From Nitratidesulfovibrio vulgaris str. Hildenborough (GTDB lineage: Bacteria; Desulfobacterota; Desulfovibrionia; Desulfovibrionales; Desulfovibrionaceae): 32,000 bases of DNA. Location: contig NC_002937.3 of the NCBI RefSeq assembly GCF_000195755.1, forward strand, positions 2,760,001 through 2,792,000, read 5' to 3'. Every line of letters starts with the position of its first letter. Position 1 is the stretch's first letter. Shown here piece by piece: positions 4,538 through 21,548 of this stretch. The position numbers and the translations under genes were made by a program. The notes below the pieces were generated by a model, which made no database searches, had not been told where the DNA came from, and saw only the letters and a list, made by a program, of their open reading frames with translations.

Positions 4538-5034
4538 TTTTTAACGTCACAAGTCCGCCTTACGTGATTTGCTTCACAAGTGTCAACGGAAAAACTTCGA
4601 TGCGGCATCAGCGCGATGGCATGAGCCCTCAAGAAAAGGGCTCGTGCCCGACCTCGGTCAGTGTACCGACGACACCTTCAGGGTTGTGCCCGCAGTATTT
4701 CACTGTCTCTGCCGCCGGACGACTCTGGACGAGGCCCAAGGCAGCGTTCGGTCTGGCAGGCGTGGTGCCTGCCACAGCGTATCCATGACCTCCCGGCTTT
4801 TCCTTTATGACAAGGTCATCTGGCTTTCAGGCCCTTGTCACCGGGAGCTACTGGCCTCTTCACATGCCCCTGTCCTCGGCTTGCCGACGGGATGAAGACT
4901 GCGGTCGTTACGAAGCGAGAGCTCAACGTGCCACGGCTTTGCCTCGCCCCTGCCCCCCGGTACAATGAACTCAATGATCCGAATTTATGTAAAATACGGC
5001 AGAGTGAGCATTCTTCAAAAGCAGCACGCGCCCC

Positions 5035-5640
5035 GCTTCCGGCAGCGGTGAACCCTGCCGGCTCACTGTGCCGGGTCACTGCCTGCGCCAATGACAAGAA
5101 GAAGCGGAGGCTGGTGCCTCCGCGACATGACGCACTCGCGCAGGACGAATGAGCCCGGACGCCAATGACGATATCTCCGGCGCAGAGAACACGGCAGGCG
5201 TTCGCTTCAGGCAGGGGTGACCCCTGCCGGCTCACTGTGCCGGGTCACTGGCTGCGCCAATGACAAGAAGAAGCGGAGGCTGGTGCTCCGCGACATGACG
5301 CACTCGCGCAGGACGAATGAGCCCGGACGCCAATGACGGTATCTCCGGCGCAGAGAACAGGGCAGGCGTTCGCTTCCGGCAGGGGTGAACCCTGCCGGCT
5401 CACTGTGCCGGGTCACTGGCTGCGCCAATGACAAAAAGAAGCGGAGGCTGGTGCCTCCGCGACATGACGCACTCGCGCAGGACGAATGAGCCCGGACGCC
5501 AATGACGGTATCTCCGGTGCAAAGGACACGGCAGGCGTTCGCTTCCGGCAGGGGTGAACCCTGCCGACTCACTGTGCCTGGTCACTGGCTGCGCCAATGA
5601 CAAAAAGAAGCGGAGGCTGGTGCCTCCGCTTCTTTTTGCG
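5035..5640. repeat. Noncoding tandem repeat: 169-bp unit, three full copies plus a partial fourth ending in a perfect terminator
   Basis: The anchor CTGCCGG recurs at 5055, 5224, 5392 and 5561 (periods 169, 168, 169). Units differ by a handful of substitutions and one 1-nt deletion (GGTGCTCCGC at about 5281-5290). Each unit has two hairpins: CCGGCAGGG-GTGAA-CCCTGCCGG and GCGGAGGC-TGGT-GCCTCCGC. Confidence 0.95.
5602..5637. terminator. Bidirectional rho-independent terminator (last repeat copy), terminating the 5697-6248 gene on the minus strand
   Basis: AAAAAGAAGCGGAGGC (5602-5617), loop TGGT, GCCTCCGCTTCTTTTT (5622-5637). This is a perfect 16-nt inverted repeat with an A tract on one side and a T tract on the other, 60 nt downstream of the stop at 5697. 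Confidence 0.8.
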
Positions 5641-5696: not shown

Positions 5697-6248
5697 CTAC
5701 GCCACGCGCTCTTCAAGGCGCACGCGGTCGAGGTCTACGACTACAGGGTCGATGAGGGTGAAACCGGAGGGGTTCGACCAGTTGAACTCATCCGCGGCAC
5801 GCCCTGCGTAGGTCACGTCACTCAGGGCGCTGAACCCTTCCGTCAGACACGGTGACAGGTCGAGTACACGTGCGGCAAAGGCATTGGCATCGAAGGAATC
5901 GACATTGCGCCACACCCATCTGTAGGTACAACGTTCGTCGGTGAAACCCATGACAGCCATGAACCGGGCACGCGAACCAAGGAAGAGTTCAGGATTCAGC
6001 GTCGTTCCCGTTGCCATCAGAGCCTTGGTGTCAAAAGGTACCGGCTGACCATCCACGGTCAGCTGAACAGTTGTCGCTGCATCGATACGCATACCGAAAT
6101 TCCGAGTGTTGCCCCGGCGCCACCAGTTCATGTACTTCTGTGAGTATATCTTGCGGCCGTTGGTGCGGATGTTTTCCGCAGTACGTGACGAGACGGGATG
6201 CAGAGCCAGGTCGCAGCTGCTACCGGTGAAAGTAAGGACGATATCCAT
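5697..6248 (-). CDS. Hypothetical protein, 183 aa, paralog of the 6824-7405 product (orphan family)
   Basis: MDIVLTFTGSSCDLALHPVS... shares blocks with the neighbour: SCD[LI]ALHPVS, YMNWWR[RK]GNTR.FGMR, SRA[RK][FY][ML]AV[ML]G, NPSGFTLIDP[VI]V[VI]DL. The ATG at 6248 has GAGAGG 7 nt upstream. No signal peptide or TM segment. Confidence 0.75.
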   Translation of the reverse strand: MDIVLTFTGSSCDLALHPVSSRTAENIRTNGRKIYSQKYMNWWRRGNTRNFGMRIDAATTVQLTVDGQPVPFDTKALMATGTTLNPELFLGSRARFMAVMGFTDERCTYRWVWRNVDSFDANAFAARVLDLSPCLTEGFSALSDVTYAGRAADEFNWSNPSGFTLIDPVVVDLDRVRLEERVA

Positions 6249-6713
6249 TGATTGACCTCTCAAACAACACATGATCTCTAAAAAAATCCTGCACTGAGGC
6301 AAGATTTGCCAGGCCTTGCGAGTGAGAGCCTCCGGTGAACAGCCACATGCGTCGGTTGCAACGACGCTACAACATCAGGTACGGCACGGCTCAGCTTTCG
6401 CAGGTTGGTCACCCAACCAAGACGCCCTCACTTTGCCTCAGTCGGCACAAACAGTCAACAGGATTGTAGCAGAAAGTCGATTTTACGAAGCACCCAACAT
6501 TGATTGCGCACATAGTTGTGAAAAAATTGATCAAGCCGGTCGAAGCCTCCTTTCCCGTTCCCGCCGCGCCTTTTCGCAACCAGCGACAGATCGCCAATGC
6601 ATGGCGGATATCCAGATATGACATGCTGCATTCACATCGTTTTCAAACCTTGCCATTACCATCGGCGACCAGAAACACCTGCAACGCTGCGCCGCGCGAT
6701 GGGGCCAGCACAT

Positions 6714-6756
6714 ACCAAAAAAAGGCGGAGAGCGACGTGTGGTCGTCGCTCTCCGG
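6714..6756 (-). terminator. Rho-independent terminator of the 6824-7405 gene
   Basis: On the minus strand CGGAGAGCGACG-ACCACA-CGTCGCTCTCCG (12-bp stem, 6726-6755) is followed by a T7 run (A7 on plus at 6717-6723). Confidence 0.8.
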
Positions 6757-6823
6757 GGGAAGGGAGGATCATTGAAGACTGGGAAGGGAGGGTATGCAGT
6801 CAGGCGAATGCCTGTTCATGCCA

Positions 6824-7405
6824 TCAGGCAGGTACCTTCGAAGAAGATCGCGACTCGGCTTCGACCTCACGCCGCACCTCGGCGAGGTCGATAACAATGG
6901 GGTCGATGAGGGTGAACCCGCTGGGATTGCACCACGAATCATCATCGGCGCATCTGCCATTGTAGAAGACGGAGTCGACGACATTGTAGCCTTCTGTCCG
7001 GAGAACGCGATCCCAGTTGAGAACCTGAAAGCGGAAGTTCTTCGGGTCGAAGTCCTGAACATCATTCCATATCCACTTGAAATTGCACCACTCATCGTCA
7101 TATCCAAGAACAGCGAGATACTTGGCGCGGCTTTCCAGATACATCCGGCGACGCACGGCATGCACATCGCGGTAAAGAAGCTGGTCGTCGAACGGGGTCT
7201 GCTTTCCGTCAACGTACAGGCGCACCATGCTGTCCGGCCCGACGCGCATGCCGAAGGTGCGAGTGTTACCCTTGCGCCACCAGTTCATATACTTTTCCGC
7301 GTAAATCGCCCGCCCGCGCTTACGTATGGTCTCGGCGGTCTGCGGAGAAACGGGATGAAGAGCGATGTCACAGCTTTGACCAGTGATTTCAAAGATGATG
7401 TTCAT
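6824..7405 (-). CDS. Hypothetical protein, 193 aa, paralog of the 5697-6248 product (orphan family)
   Basis: MNIIFEITGQSCDIALHPVS... The ATG at 7405 has GAGAGGGA upstream. Paralogy to the neighbouring gene supports this strand over the 257-aa antisense ORF 6794-7567. Confidence 0.8.
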   Translation of the reverse strand: MNIIFEITGQSCDIALHPVSPQTAETIRKRGRAIYAEKYMNWWRKGNTRTFGMRVGPDSMVRLYVDGKQTPFDDQLLYRDVHAVRRRMYLESRAKYLAVLGYDDEWCNFKWIWNDVQDFDPKNFRFQVLNWDRVLRTEGYNVVDSVFYNGRCADDDSWCNPSGFTLIDPIVIDLAEVRREVEAESRSSSKVPA

Positions 7406-7487
7406 GGATTCCCTCTCGTACTACAGATTGTTTCCGCCGGGCCTGCAAGGCTGCGTCATGTTGAACCAGCTATTCTGCCCGTAAGTG

Positions 7488-7505
7488 AGCATACACTGTG
7501 CCATT
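7488..7505 (-). promoter_or_regulatory. Candidate sigma-54 (-24/-12) promoter for the 6824-7405 gene
   Basis: The minus strand reads AATGGCACAGTGTATGCT, that is TGGCAC-N5-ATGCT against the consensus TGGCAC-N5-TTGCW. GG-to-GC spacing is correct (12 nt, G to G). It lies about 85 nt upstream of the ATG. Confidence 0.5.
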
Positions 7506-7817
7506 GCGTAATAAGGGATCGCGCATCTGCCAGCACATCCCCGCACTCGCTTGCGAACAAAGCATAGTTATTTTTTTCACAACCTGTCAAGCGTCGCCAC
7601 CTGTTCCGTGCAATACCCAGTCTGCGGGAAATTGCGCGGTTACGCCCCACCAAAGCTCATATTCTTCGCGAAAGACATAGCATGGTGCATGCGCTTTTTC
7701 GCAATTATCACCCTGCCAGCCTTCAGACCGGAGGACACAGGCGCATGGTAGTGCGCTCGCCGTATGAGCCCTTCATGATGATGGACGGTCCAGACGTCGC
7801 ATCATCCGGAAGGCACG

Positions 7818-7866
7818 ACGACAAGACGGGATAGAAGAAGGTCGCTGGTGCCTCGTCATACCGCAA
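7818..7866. repeat. Decayed relic of the hairpin repeat module
   Basis: ACGACAAGA...AGAAGAAGGTCGCTGGTGCCTCGTCATACCGCA versus the canonical ATGACAAGAAGAAGCGGAGGCTGGTGCCTCCGCGACATGACGCA. An exact 11-mer (GCTGGTGCCTC) and an exact 8-mer (AGAAGAAG) sit in the right order. The left hairpin arm is mutated. Confidence 0.4.
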
Positions 7867-8361
7867 GCCCATTCCCTCTCGTCTCCATTCGACCATGCTC
7901 ACTGCCGGTCATGCCCATCAATGCACTACAACTGTTGCGTCCAGAGAAAAACAGTCGGCAAACATCCACAGTTCGATACTGCATCGAACGGCTACACCCC
8001 TCTTCCCAAAAGGGTTTCGCAGCCCCTGCCCGCATCGCGCATGCCCACCGGACAAGCTCGAAAAACTCTAAAAAAAGTCAAACATCAAGACTGATTGGGC
8101 TTTGAGAAGATCATCGTCGGACTTCTGCAACCTCACACCACGAAACTGCAGAACAGGACCATTTCCATGCAACAGTCCCATCGACCTGGCGGGTATTCCT
8201 TCACCGTACAGCCGCGCCAGCATACATGCCCGCCGATGACGGACCATGAACCGTTTTTTTCTTGTCAGCACACAGGCGGTGCAGTAAGGTCGGCATGTTC
8301 AAGTCAGTTCACAACCACGCAACCCCTATCCTCAAGCTGCTACCTTGCACCGAGAGGCAGA

Positions 8362-9687
8362 ATGGCACACCAGAGCATCCCCGGACATGGCAAACGCTTT
8401 CCCGGCCAGCTAGGCATCGTCCTTCTGGTGCTGACTTTCGTTGTGGCAAGCGTCTGCGGGGCACATGCCTCCGAAAGGCTCAATGTGGTATCGGCGTTCC
8501 TGATAGACCAGAACAGCCGACGTGTGCTCTTCGAACAGAACGCTGACGCGCAGATTCCTCCCGCTTCGCTCACCAAGGTCATATCGATGTATGTGGCCCT
8601 CGACCATATCAGGGCCGGAAAGGCCTCTCTCGCAGACAAGGTCAAGATCAGCGCCCGTGCGGCCCGAACAGGCGGTTCTCGCATGTTTCTCACCCGCGGA
8701 GAGACTGTATCGCTTGACGAACTGCTTATGGGCATGGCTGTATCCTCTGGCAATGACGCCAGTGTTGCAGTGGCTGAGCATATCGCGGGCAGTACCGACC
8801 GGTTCGTACAACTGATGAACGCCAAGGCACGTGCACTGGGGATGACGGAAACGACATTCCGCAACGTCAACGGACTGCCTGCAGCGGGGCAGAAGACGAC
8901 AGCGCGAGACATGGGCAAGCTGGCAGTCAGCTATCTCACTGCCCATCCGCAGGCACTGCGCTACCATTCAACGCGCTTCATCAGACACAACAAGGTCATC
9001 ACGACCAACAAGAATCCCATGCTCGGCAACTGCGAAGGGGCCGACGGCCTCAAGACCGGCTGGGTATGCGCGTCGGGCTACAACCTCATATCCACTGTCA
9101 AACGGGGCAACACCCGCCTTGTTGCTGTCGTCCTCGGCGCGGAGAACAGTCAGGTTCGCGGTCAGGAGATGAACAGGCTCATCGACGCAGGCTACAGGTC
9201 GTTACGGGGTGAGGGGCCTTCAGTGGCTGCCGTCCTGCCCCGCCTCTCGCCTGCCGATTATCGGATCGACCTGCACAAGACCAACTCTCTCGCCTATGCC
9301 GAAGTGAGCAAACACAAGAAGAAGATCGCAGCCCGCAAAGGCAAACTGCGGGCAGGCAAGACTGGCTCCAAGCAGCACGCCTCGGCGCAGGTCAGCAAGT
9401 CCTCCAAATCATCCAAGGCCGTCAAAGGCAAATCTCCGGACAAGTCTGCAGCTACATCCAAGGCTGTCGCCACAGTGCGGCGAGAGAAAGCCAAGGCGGT
9501 TCCTTCGAACAAGTCTGTCCGGGCTACCAAGGTGCAGCAGGCCCGCAAGGCTGCCGTCGCCCGCAAGACAGAGACGAAAACGACCGTGAAACGGTCCAAG
9601 CCCGCCACCGCCGCTTCGACCAAGAAGACGGCAGCACCGCCTCGTACTCCCGTACAGCGCGCCGAACGCACAGACAAACGGGGCTAG
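8362..9687 (+). CDS. Serine-type D-Ala-D-Ala carboxypeptidase (PBP5/6, peptidase S11) with a Lys/Ala/Ser-rich C-terminal tail
   Basis: Signal peptide MAHQSIPGHGKRFPGQLGIVLLVLTFVVASVCGAHA. Motifs SLTK (SxxK), SGND (SxN) and KTGW (KTG) are in the correct order. The ATG at 8362 has GAGAGG upstream. The tracked start at 8095 was rejected. Confidence 0.85.
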   Translation: MAHQSIPGHGKRFPGQLGIVLLVLTFVVASVCGAHASERLNVVSAFLIDQNSRRVLFEQNADAQIPPASLTKVISMYVALDHIRAGKASLADKVKISARAARTGGSRMFLTRGETVSLDELLMGMAVSSGNDASVAVAEHIAGSTDRFVQLMNAKARALGMTETTFRNVNGLPAAGQKTTARDMGKLAVSYLTAHPQALRYHSTRFIRHNKVITTNKNPMLGNCEGADGLKTGWVCASGYNLISTVKRGNTRLVAVVLGAENSQVRGQEMNRLIDAGYRSLRGEGPSVAAVLPRLSPADYRIDLHKTNSLAYAEVSKHKKKIAARKGKLRAGKTGSKQHASAQVSKSSKSSKAVKGKSPDKSAATSKAVATVRREKAKAVPSNKSVRATKVQQARKAAVARKTETKTTVKRSKPATAASTKKTAAPPRTPVQRAERTDKRG

Positions 9688-21335: not shown

Positions 21336-21360
21336 TTCCCGTCGCGCCTTGGCATCAGTA

Positions 21361-21548
21361 CCCCTGGAGTGTGCGTGATAGATATGCCATCGCTGACCTC
21401 ACAAGCTTGAAATAGGGCATCGGTACGGTGGACCGGTGTGCACGCCCGGCATGACCGGGTAGCCTGAAGGCCCGCCCGAGAAGCCCCCCTGGTCAACACC
21501 AGGTCCTGCTTTGGTATGTCACACGGCTCTCCGGGGCCACTGGCCCCT
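21361..21548 (+). ncRNA. ssrS: Candidate 6S RNA
   Basis: It lies in the 390-nt noncoding gap after zapA, the classic ssrS neighbourhood. The 5' CCCC-U-GGAG-UGUG...GAUAUGCC pairs with the 3' GGUAUGUC-ACAC-GG-CUCC-GGGG (21361-21388 with 21513-21536), giving a long interrupted closing helix of about 176 nt. Internal hairpins are CCCGG-CAUGA-CCGGG (21445-21459) and CCUGG-UCAACA-CCAGG (21488-21503). GGGGCC-ACU-GGCCCC follows at the 3' end. Confidence 0.6.

Follow-up and report, generated by a model that had tools for sequence, protein, structure and literature searches.

In Desulfovibrio vulgaris, the described OrpR-orp system combines a sigma-54 promoter, integration host factor and a PAS activator that senses redox by a [4Fe-4S] cluster, with C52/E54/C61/C65 as the OrpR ligands (PMC8359166), and the published targets of a second sigma-54 activator, DVU0151, are membrane and transport proteins (DVU0150, TauE, DUF4881) (Kazakov 2015, PMC4641369). 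Here, we describe DVU2652 and DVU2650 (famA and famB), two paralogous minus-strand genes in a 32,000-nt stretch (the window) of D. vulgaris Hildenborough (Nitratidesulfovibrio vulgaris str. Hildenborough, NC_002937.3, positions 2,760,001 to 2,792,000 of the forward strand), which define an undescribed protein family with predicted sigma-54 control and with neighbours that tentatively suggest a role in metal-centre assembly. D. vulgaris Hildenborough is a genetic model for sulfate reducers, and both genes are still annotated as hypothetical in it. Kazakov 2015 (PMC4641369) counts DVU2652 among 23 sigma-54 operons without an enhancer found, and Additional file 6 of that study gives for it the promoter 19-mer that is found here, assigning neither a function nor a regulator; this sigma-54 promoter is therefore already published. 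The literature searched contains no main-text mention of DVU2650, DVU2651 or DVU2652. An analysis of the window from its letters and open reading frames (ORFs), called the original prediction below, had taken the two genes for duplicated, separately transcribed orphans in a compositionally foreign islet.

Results

The gene pair is as the original prediction had it: two adjacent ORFs of 193 and 183 amino acids (aa) are present (Table 1), their products share 51% identity over 180 aa (E = 2e-70; about 45% by eye earlier), every conserved block quoted for them occurs in the two proteins, and neither has a hydrophobic or transmembrane segment (maximum 19-residue hydropathy 0.95). By exact sequence match, the products are AAS97124.1/Q728F1 (DVU2652) and AAS97122.1 (DVU2650), in agreement with the chromosome positions 2766824-2767405 and 2765697-2766302, minus strand, that the Trotter 2023 supplement gives for DVU2652 and DVU2650; the same supplement records DVU2652 as non-essential, with many transposon insertions. 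Public starts for DVU2650 conflict: TTG 6302 (201 aa), ATG 6248 (183 aa) and, in RefSeq, an internal Met (131 aa). We regard the 183-aa start as the credible one because all homologs in the alignment start at ATG 6248 and the ribosome-binding site GAGAGG lies 8-13 nt 5' of it. The RefSeq model of 131 aa would drop the invariant residues C12, D13 and H17. The identity of the two genes and the description of their family given here can be taken with high confidence.

Table 1. Features of the DVU2652-DVU2650 locus, in window coordinates. Site and enhancer rows come from a position weight matrix (PWM) search.
Feature	Position	Strand	Remarks
DVU2652 (famA)	6824-7405	minus	193 aa ORF
DVU2650 (famB)	5697-6248	minus	183 aa from ATG 6248; ORF reaches TTG 6302
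Sigma-54 promoter of famA, AATGGCACAGTGTATGCTC	7487-7505	minus	-24 GG and -12 GC present
Predicted enhancer (upstream activator site) region	7547-7708		five DVU0151-type sites; PWM
DVU0151-type site TTTTTCGCAATTAT	7695-7708	plus	PWM
DVU0151-type palindrome TCTTTCGCGAAGAA	7662-7675	both	counted once per strand; PWM
DVU0151-type site TTTTTCACAACCTG	7573-7586	plus	PWM
DVU0151-type site TTGTTCGCAAGCGA	7560-7547	minus	PWM
CGCGCAA, further occurrence	7638-7632	minus	
Intrinsic terminator of famA	6716-6755 (hairpin 6726-6755 + T-run)	minus	12-bp stem, 9 GC pairs, T7
Leader/promoter region of famB	6249-6715	minus	conserved block, TTGACT 6458-6453 through GTGACCAACC near 6400
Terminator hairpin of famB	5610-5638	minus	perfect 18-bp stem; -32.6 kcal/mol, z = -8.8; also first hairpin of repeat array
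169-nt tandem repeat array	5034-5629		3.5 copies; downstream flank of famB only, outside gene pair

DVU2652 and DVU2650 belong to a family of soluble, mixed alpha/beta proteins of about 190 aa that is restricted to Desulfovibrionaceae. A homolog search gave 113 clusters at 90% identity (about 185-205 aa), each named cluster coming from Desulfovibrionaceae, and a profile search run exhaustively over 1.84 billion cluster representatives returned 37 hits only, mostly fragments; the family, though real, is narrow. When species-representative genomes were scanned, 77 genomic loci were located in about ten genera of Desulfovibrionaceae, including Nitratidesulfovibrio, Bilophila, Humidesulfovibrio, Desulfocurvus, Pseudodesulfovibrio, Maridesulfovibrio, Fundidesulfovibrio and Solidesulfovibrio; with this many relatives the two genes lose their orphan status. 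That they fit no known family was borne out: the best Pfam-A match (E-value 0.15) falls under the cut-off, NCBIfam, PHROGs and PADLOC gave nothing, and the family profile found no match among PDB sequences (best E 0.12). One metagenomic protein of 597 aa (P0130) has about nine repeats with EYWRRGNARSF, matching the WWRRGNTRNF block of the family, and is probably translated repeat DNA.

Structure prediction followed by Foldseek, which the original prediction had proposed, yielded a confident model and no match to a solved structure. The AlphaFold (AF2) model of the DVU2652 protein (predicted local distance difference test, pLDDT, 88.5; predicted template-modelling score, pTM, 0.79) is built around two long beta-hairpins (residues 3-19 and 96-113), and Foldseek against the PDB found no solved relative (best E = 0.06, template-modelling (TM) score 0.15 or lower). 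In BFVD, five uncharacterized Caudovirales proteins (A0A6J5LGW5, A0A6J5T6J3, A0A6J5LUA2, A0A218MMX5 and A0A6J5T0V2) are alike in fold (E 1e-6 to 2e-4, TM 0.54-0.56, probability 1.00), but identity to them is about 11%, each is without an assigned function, and there is no sequence-level link. Invariant columns among 67 family sequences include C12, D13, H17, P18, W43, R44 and C107, and D103 and E105 are nearly invariant; DVU2650 retains all invariant residues. To the universal C12, H17 and C107, copies tied to an OrpR-type activator or to coo genes (both described below) add C11, C49 and C51. A divergent homolog (P0128) keeps the fold-forming blocks and is missing C12, H17 and C107.

The pair is inherited vertically. 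The tandem arrangement of the two genes, with a spacer of 870-950 nt, recurs in six other Nitratidesulfovibrio genomes, where queC-queE-queD and a divergent S11 peptidase gene stand upstream in the same synteny, so that these close relatives have the pair at the same site; the genes are, to a large extent, core and syntenic across the genus. A crude neighbour-joining (NJ) tree separates the A from the B copies, both for the window and for the other Nitratidesulfovibrio genomes, with the B copies in a long-branched clade of their own beside an A/Bilophila clade, and identity to the Nitratidesulfovibrio sp. HK-II ortholog is 55% for DVU2650 and 77% for DVU2652. The separate clades and the difference in ortholog identity point to an old duplication, which probably preceded the split of the Nitratidesulfovibrio species and was followed by faster evolution of B. 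Elsewhere, one Desulfovibrio metagenome-assembled genome (locus L019, 6990-8558) has two family copies in tandem behind cooH-hypA-cooF, with about 450 nt between them; the family seems to have undergone tandem duplication there a second time and independently.

A sigma-54 promoter had been predicted for one of the two genes, and the gene is DVU2652: its -24/-12 element TGGCACAGTGTATGC (TGGCAC-N5-ATGC) lies at 7503-7489 (-), 83 nt 5' of the ATG, and is invariant in the alignment of seven genomes (the window and six Nitratidesulfovibrio). Within 15-200 nt upstream, 61% of 83 family genes have a -24/-12 match of at least 8/10, versus 4.6% of random windows, and 34% have one of at least 9/10, versus 0.36%. 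To judge from these upstream matches, sigma-54 control is a family-wide trait, and this is new here. A sigma-70-like match (TTGACA-18-TATGCT, 10/12 positions) precedes the sigma-54 element by 60-90 nt, at 7561-7590 (-). This match overlaps a conserved TTGTGAAAAAAA block, but other Nitratidesulfovibrio do not retain its -35 hexamer.

Each gene also ends separately, as had been proposed. The hairpin after DVU2652 (-24.5 kcal/mol, z = -4.6) and the perfect hairpin after DVU2650 are both present (Table 1), and other Nitratidesulfovibrio have a hairpin and T-run in the same position after famA with a different stem sequence; therefore, separate transcription is conserved. The leader of DVU2650, put at about 570 nt in the original prediction, measures about 477 nt when counted from the DVU2652 terminator. 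Its conserved block, TTGACT through GTGACCAACC, lies about 150-210 nt 5' of the ATG and is conserved in the Nitratidesulfovibrio alignment. A sigma-54 promoter for DVU2650 was considered and rejected, the best match being 6/10 and out of register in orthologs, with none of at least 7/10. As far as sequence elements show, DVU2650 is transcribed separately, from this conserved upstream block of non-sigma-54 type. Rfam, at gathering and E-value thresholds, detected no RNA family in either spacer and gave only a chance miRNA match on the terminator hairpin.

Activator genes beside the family genes are of two types. In 26 loci, a divergent PAS-AAA+-HTH_8 activator gene lies 90-260 nt upstream of the family gene, and 20 of the 22 such activators examined contain C-x-[DE]-x6-C-x3-C (one further has Gln at the acidic position), with the spacing of the C52/E54/C61/C65 [4Fe-4S] signature of OrpR. 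The resemblance to OrpR-orp extends to about 25 genomes with a divergent activator of the same domain order, the signature being present in almost all of the 22, and to the enhancer of these loci, a 17-nt palindrome with an AT-rich centre (GGACGCAnAnTTCGTCC, exact in 17/25) that resembles the OrpR site GGGCGYRTTTTGCGCCC. Unlike in OrpR-orp, the target is the DVU2652 family and not the orp genes, the half-sites are GGACG rather than GGGCG, and the D. vulgaris pair has no such neighbour; [4Fe-4S] binding by the activator paralogs is predicted. A homolog search with the PAS domain only, for a link between the adjacent activators and DVU2106, returned fragments only. OrpR itself is ruled out as the DVU2652 activator in D. 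vulgaris, where chromatin immunoprecipitation sequencing (ChIP-seq) finds it at orp operons only (PMC8359166). We also discarded an HcpR/CRP-type reading of TGTGA-N6-TCACA, for which the exact palindrome occurs in 6 loci only, all linked to an OrpR-type activator; the corresponding block of D. vulgaris scores as a DVU0151-type site.

The second type is an activator of about 837 aa, encoded within about 3 kb of the family gene in nine Maridesulfovibrio and Pseudodesulfovibrio loci and directly adjacent to it in eight, with two transmembrane-like hydrophobic stretches and a winged-helix-like C-terminus (by eye). The homolog in D. vulgaris, with 36% identity over 85% of the query, is DVU0151; it was recognized by its divergent neighbour, which carries Pfam PF28216 'DVU0150' and after which come TauE and DUF4881. 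Loci L090 (3258-5771), L052, L053, L059, L066, L075, L032, L033, L070, L058 and L094 (3001-5874) encode sigma-54 activators of about 830-960 aa, among which DVU0151 belongs. By eye, these activators show two transmembrane-like hydrophobic stretches and, in place of a Fis-type helix-turn-helix, a winged-helix-like C-terminus; they form an unusual membrane-anchored type, and one distant relative has a dCache_1 hit.

With a PWM built from nine published DVU0151 sites (Kazakov 2015, PMC4641369), 5 of the top-10 hits in the 32-kb window fall in 7547-7708, just upstream of the DVU2652 promoter. Five sites of at least 11 bits stand in 297 nt there, where dinucleotide shuffles have a mean of 0.29 and 0/300 reach 5, and four other intergenic regions have zero DVU0151-type hits. 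The 7573 site is the TTGTGAAAAAAA block, conserved throughout the seven-genome alignment. At least one PWM hit is found in 15/27 loci without an OrpR-type activator versus 3/25 with it, and (C/T)GCGCAA occurs upstream, at least once, in 20/27 of the former versus 11% of background windows. The motif ATCGCGCAAC is common to upstream regions of family genes and the DVU0150 promoter region; the latter contains ATCGCGCAACA, and the same core ATCGCGCAACATC lies upstream of family genes in L028 and L042. The window's best PWM hit (17.0 bits) lies instead in the spacer between the two genes, at 6570-6583 (+), together with another top-10 hit at 6525-6512 (-); neither has a sigma-54 promoter downstream, the spacer as a whole is not significantly enriched (shuffle p about 0.08), and inspection of the Nitratidesulfovibrio alignment gives no impression of conservation at the two positions.

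DVU2652 thus resembles the DVU0151-DVU0150 regulon (PMC4641369) in having TTTTCGCG/ATCGCGCAA-type sites ahead of a sigma-54 promoter, and in that DVU0151 homologs are encoded beside family genes in Maridesulfovibrio and Pseudodesulfovibrio; it differs in lying 2.6 Mb from DVU0151, in receiving no regulator in the published regulome, and in its product, which is unlike the membrane and transport proteins of that regulon. Because of the adjacent homologous activators, the PWM cluster, the conserved site and the motif shared with the DVU0150 promoter, we predict that DVU0151, or an activator of the same DNA specificity, drives DVU2652, an assignment that we hold to be, on balance, probable.

Gene contexts in other genomes bear on function. 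Ten of the 113 clusters have a C-terminal NifU_N domain (31-42 bits versus a cut-off of 22 in the three scanned), which retains IscU Cys37, Asp39, Cys63 and Cys106. The family thereby touches the IscU/NifU_N scaffolds, ten clusters being fused to NifU_N with its three ligand cysteines and Asp39, and a shared pathway is suggested by this. Unlike IscU/NifU_N, DVU2652 and DVU2650 have no NifU_N domain by Pfam, where it appears only as the fused C-terminal domain of other members, and no sequence or fold similarity to IscU. Nine loci have the family gene behind cooH-hypA-cooF of a group-4 membrane [NiFe] hydrogenase operon, one of them with two tandem copies, and two further loci have it directly behind cooH. 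No good sigma-54 element precedes the copies that come directly after cooF, a sign that these may be co-transcribed with the coo operon. Bilophila-type copies lie 51-136 nt after a SlyD-like FKBP gene, and in eight distinct loci, linked to an OrpR-type activator, TusA-DsrE-TusA/OsmC lies immediately downstream of the family gene. HypA, SlyD and CooT/CooJ are comparable as small cytoplasmic Cys/His proteins near hydrogenase, hypA, cooF or SlyD-like FKBP genes, a likeness that may hold in the way they work only: homology was not found, the D. vulgaris copies lie away from hydrogenase genes, and metal binding is predicted.

The lower GC content noted earlier for the region is there, at 0.53-0.56 over 6000-8500 versus a window mean of 0.627, but it appears to be a mild dip rather than a foreign signature, because the two long non-coding spacers (GC 0.534 and 0.540) are its main source and third-codon-position GC (GC3) of the genes is near that of their neighbours. 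DVU2652 and DVU2650 have GC 0.553 and 0.574 and GC3 0.68 and 0.66, and neighbouring genes GC 0.575-0.665 and GC3 0.69-0.78, the GntR gene in the window being at 0.575 overall. A single repeat family does not bracket the pair, contrary to the earlier description: the 169-nt array adjoins DVU2650 on its downstream side only, the only further fragment occurs at 456-511, and a BLAST search of the window with the repeat unit turned up no copy upstream of DVU2652. Within the 169-nt unit there are two hairpins, one terminator-like (GCGGAGGC-ACCA-GCCTCCGC followed by a T-run) and the other CCGGCAGGGGTGAACCCTGCCGG. D. vulgaris assemblies (L078-L081 compared) differ in copy number, from about 1.5 to 4.5; the repeat is not present at the same locus of other Nitratidesulfovibrio genomes and has no Rfam match. 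Window neighbours of the pair are RidA, a PLP-dependent enzyme, NhaC, GntR, the S11 peptidase and queCDE, with no tRNA, integrase or transposase nearby and no flanking direct repeats. A phage or defence role found no backing in the sequence: PADLOC and PHROGs gave zero matches for the two proteins, IMG/VR (2.9 million viral contigs) holds no family member or relative, and only the likeness in fold to five unnamed phage proteins remains. Two remote low-GC homologs (P0143, P0145) gave nothing in PHROGs or 50,697 phage genomes, and the sole contig with P0143 is 1 kb long. Further along the window, the 6S RNA (SsrS) gene lies at 21358-21541 (+) (Rfam RF00013, 64.2 bits).

Discussion

Four independent context classes, namely the IscU fusion, the hydrogenase operons, the SlyD-like gene and the sulfur relay, appear to point the same way. 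The reading that we favour, while giving it somewhat less than even weight, is that the DVU2652 family consists of small cytoplasmic proteins that would bind a metal, an Fe-S cluster or persulfide, would be accessory to scaffold or maturation proteins, and would be made on demand. In D. vulgaris, DVU2652 has the sequence elements of a monocistronic sigma-54 gene, namely the -24/-12 promoter, activator-type sites clustered upstream of it and a separate terminator, and its missing activator would be the membrane-bound, winged-helix enhancer-binding protein DVU0151 or one of the same specificity. Synthesis would take place only upon the signal of a dedicated sensor, either an OrpR-like [4Fe-4S]-PAS activator or, in other genera, a DVU0151-type membrane sensor. 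The invariant Cys12/Asp13/His17 and Cys107 would then hold the metal, Fe-S cluster or persulfide sulfur, and the protein, together with an IscU-type scaffold or the machinery of Ni/Fe-S maturation, would take part in building or repairing metal centres of redox enzymes. Taken in its most specific form, as a new-fold, Desulfovibrionaceae-specific Fe-S/persulfide carrier that partners an IscU-type scaffold and is the output of sigma-54 circuits sensing Fe-S/redox (OrpR-like) or an envelope signal (DVU0151-like), with DVU0151 as the DVU2652 activator, the proposal is speculative and, as a whole, rather doubtful.

Several observations weigh against an accessory role in metal-centre assembly. Gene contexts are heterogeneous, and no metallocentre gene stands beside the D. 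vulgaris pair. The universal ligands are C12, H17 and C107 only, too few for a classical 4-Cys site per monomer; that these three lie close together in space is presumed. The AF2 model of a fusion protein has no confident domain interface (pTM 0.54, disordered linker) and so speaks neither for nor against contact of the two domains. On the regulatory side, OrpR does not bind the DVU2652 locus in D. vulgaris (ChIP-seq, PMC8359166), the DVU0151 link leans on a nine-site PWM that is itself a computational prediction, PWM hits are weaker in the six other Nitratidesulfovibrio genomes (0-3 per locus), and activators of 36% identity may be paralogs, not orthologs, of DVU0151. DVU2652 and DVU2650 both tolerate transposon insertions and are dispensable in rich conditions (Trotter 2023 supplement), and the literature search returned no biochemical, expression or phenotype evidence for either.

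The same conserved residues would suit an enzyme equally well, namely a Cys-His-Asp hydrolase or transferase with a triad of Cys12 or Cys107, His17, and Asp13 or Asp103, acting on a small-molecule or protein substrate and unrelated to metal-centre assembly. An active site would agree with the invariant C12, D13, H17, R44 and C107 and with D103 and E105, which are nearly invariant, and the predicted fold is compact and of high confidence. The divergent homolog P0128, which keeps the fold blocks and has lost C12, H17 and C107, is what one expects of a functional, not a structural, site. Such an enzyme is nevertheless unlikely, since neither sequence nor structure (the PDB Foldseek search included) shows similarity to a hydrolase or transferase, and it would leave unexplained the IscU fusion, the extra class-specific cysteines and the hypA, SlyD and TusA neighbours.

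Single-gene regulons with an adjacent activator often encode partner or modulator proteins, and at about 35 loci a dedicated activator gene has the family gene beside it as its immediate and often only sigma-54 target. The protein could then act not as a metabolic effector but on its own sigma-54 activator, as a partner or feedback modulator, in the manner of PspA on PspF. This is improbable, as no activator is encoded near the copies at the end of coo operons, the Bilophila copies after the FKBP gene or the IscU fusions, one and the same partner would have to serve two unrelated types of activator (OrpR-like and DVU0151-like), and the D. vulgaris pair itself has no adjacent activator. The view of the original prediction, a horizontally acquired, compositionally foreign islet with a stress-, envelope- or phage-related effector pair, could draw on a GC content 6-9 points under the window mean, the resemblance of the model to five Caudovirales proteins and the adjoining repeat array, but it is largely refuted, and we give it hardly any credence, by the synteny of the locus across Nitratidesulfovibrio, the old duplication that the NJ tree indicates, GC3 values close to those of neighbours, one-sided repeats, and the lack of an integrase, transposase or tRNA nearby and of PADLOC, PHROG or viral-contig matches.

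Returning to metal-centre assembly, the family-level picture of two activator types, an IscU fusion, hydrogenase, SlyD and TusA contexts and invariant Cys/Asp/His residues appears undescribed in the literature searched. What is offered here is a specific DVU0151-to-DVU2652 assignment, two candidate types of sensor-activator, a defined family with a set of invariant residues to mutate, and context clues that converge on the handling of Fe-S, Ni or sulfur. If the favoured reading is not confirmed, a well-delimited family without a solved-structure relative remains. If its most specific form is true, DVU2652 and its relatives would form an on-demand branch of metal-centre assembly or repair in strict anaerobes, and DVU0151 would be the long-missing DVU2652 activator; confirmation of the favoured reading would add a lineage-specific part to metal-centre biogenesis in anaerobes, the gut pathobiont Bilophila included.

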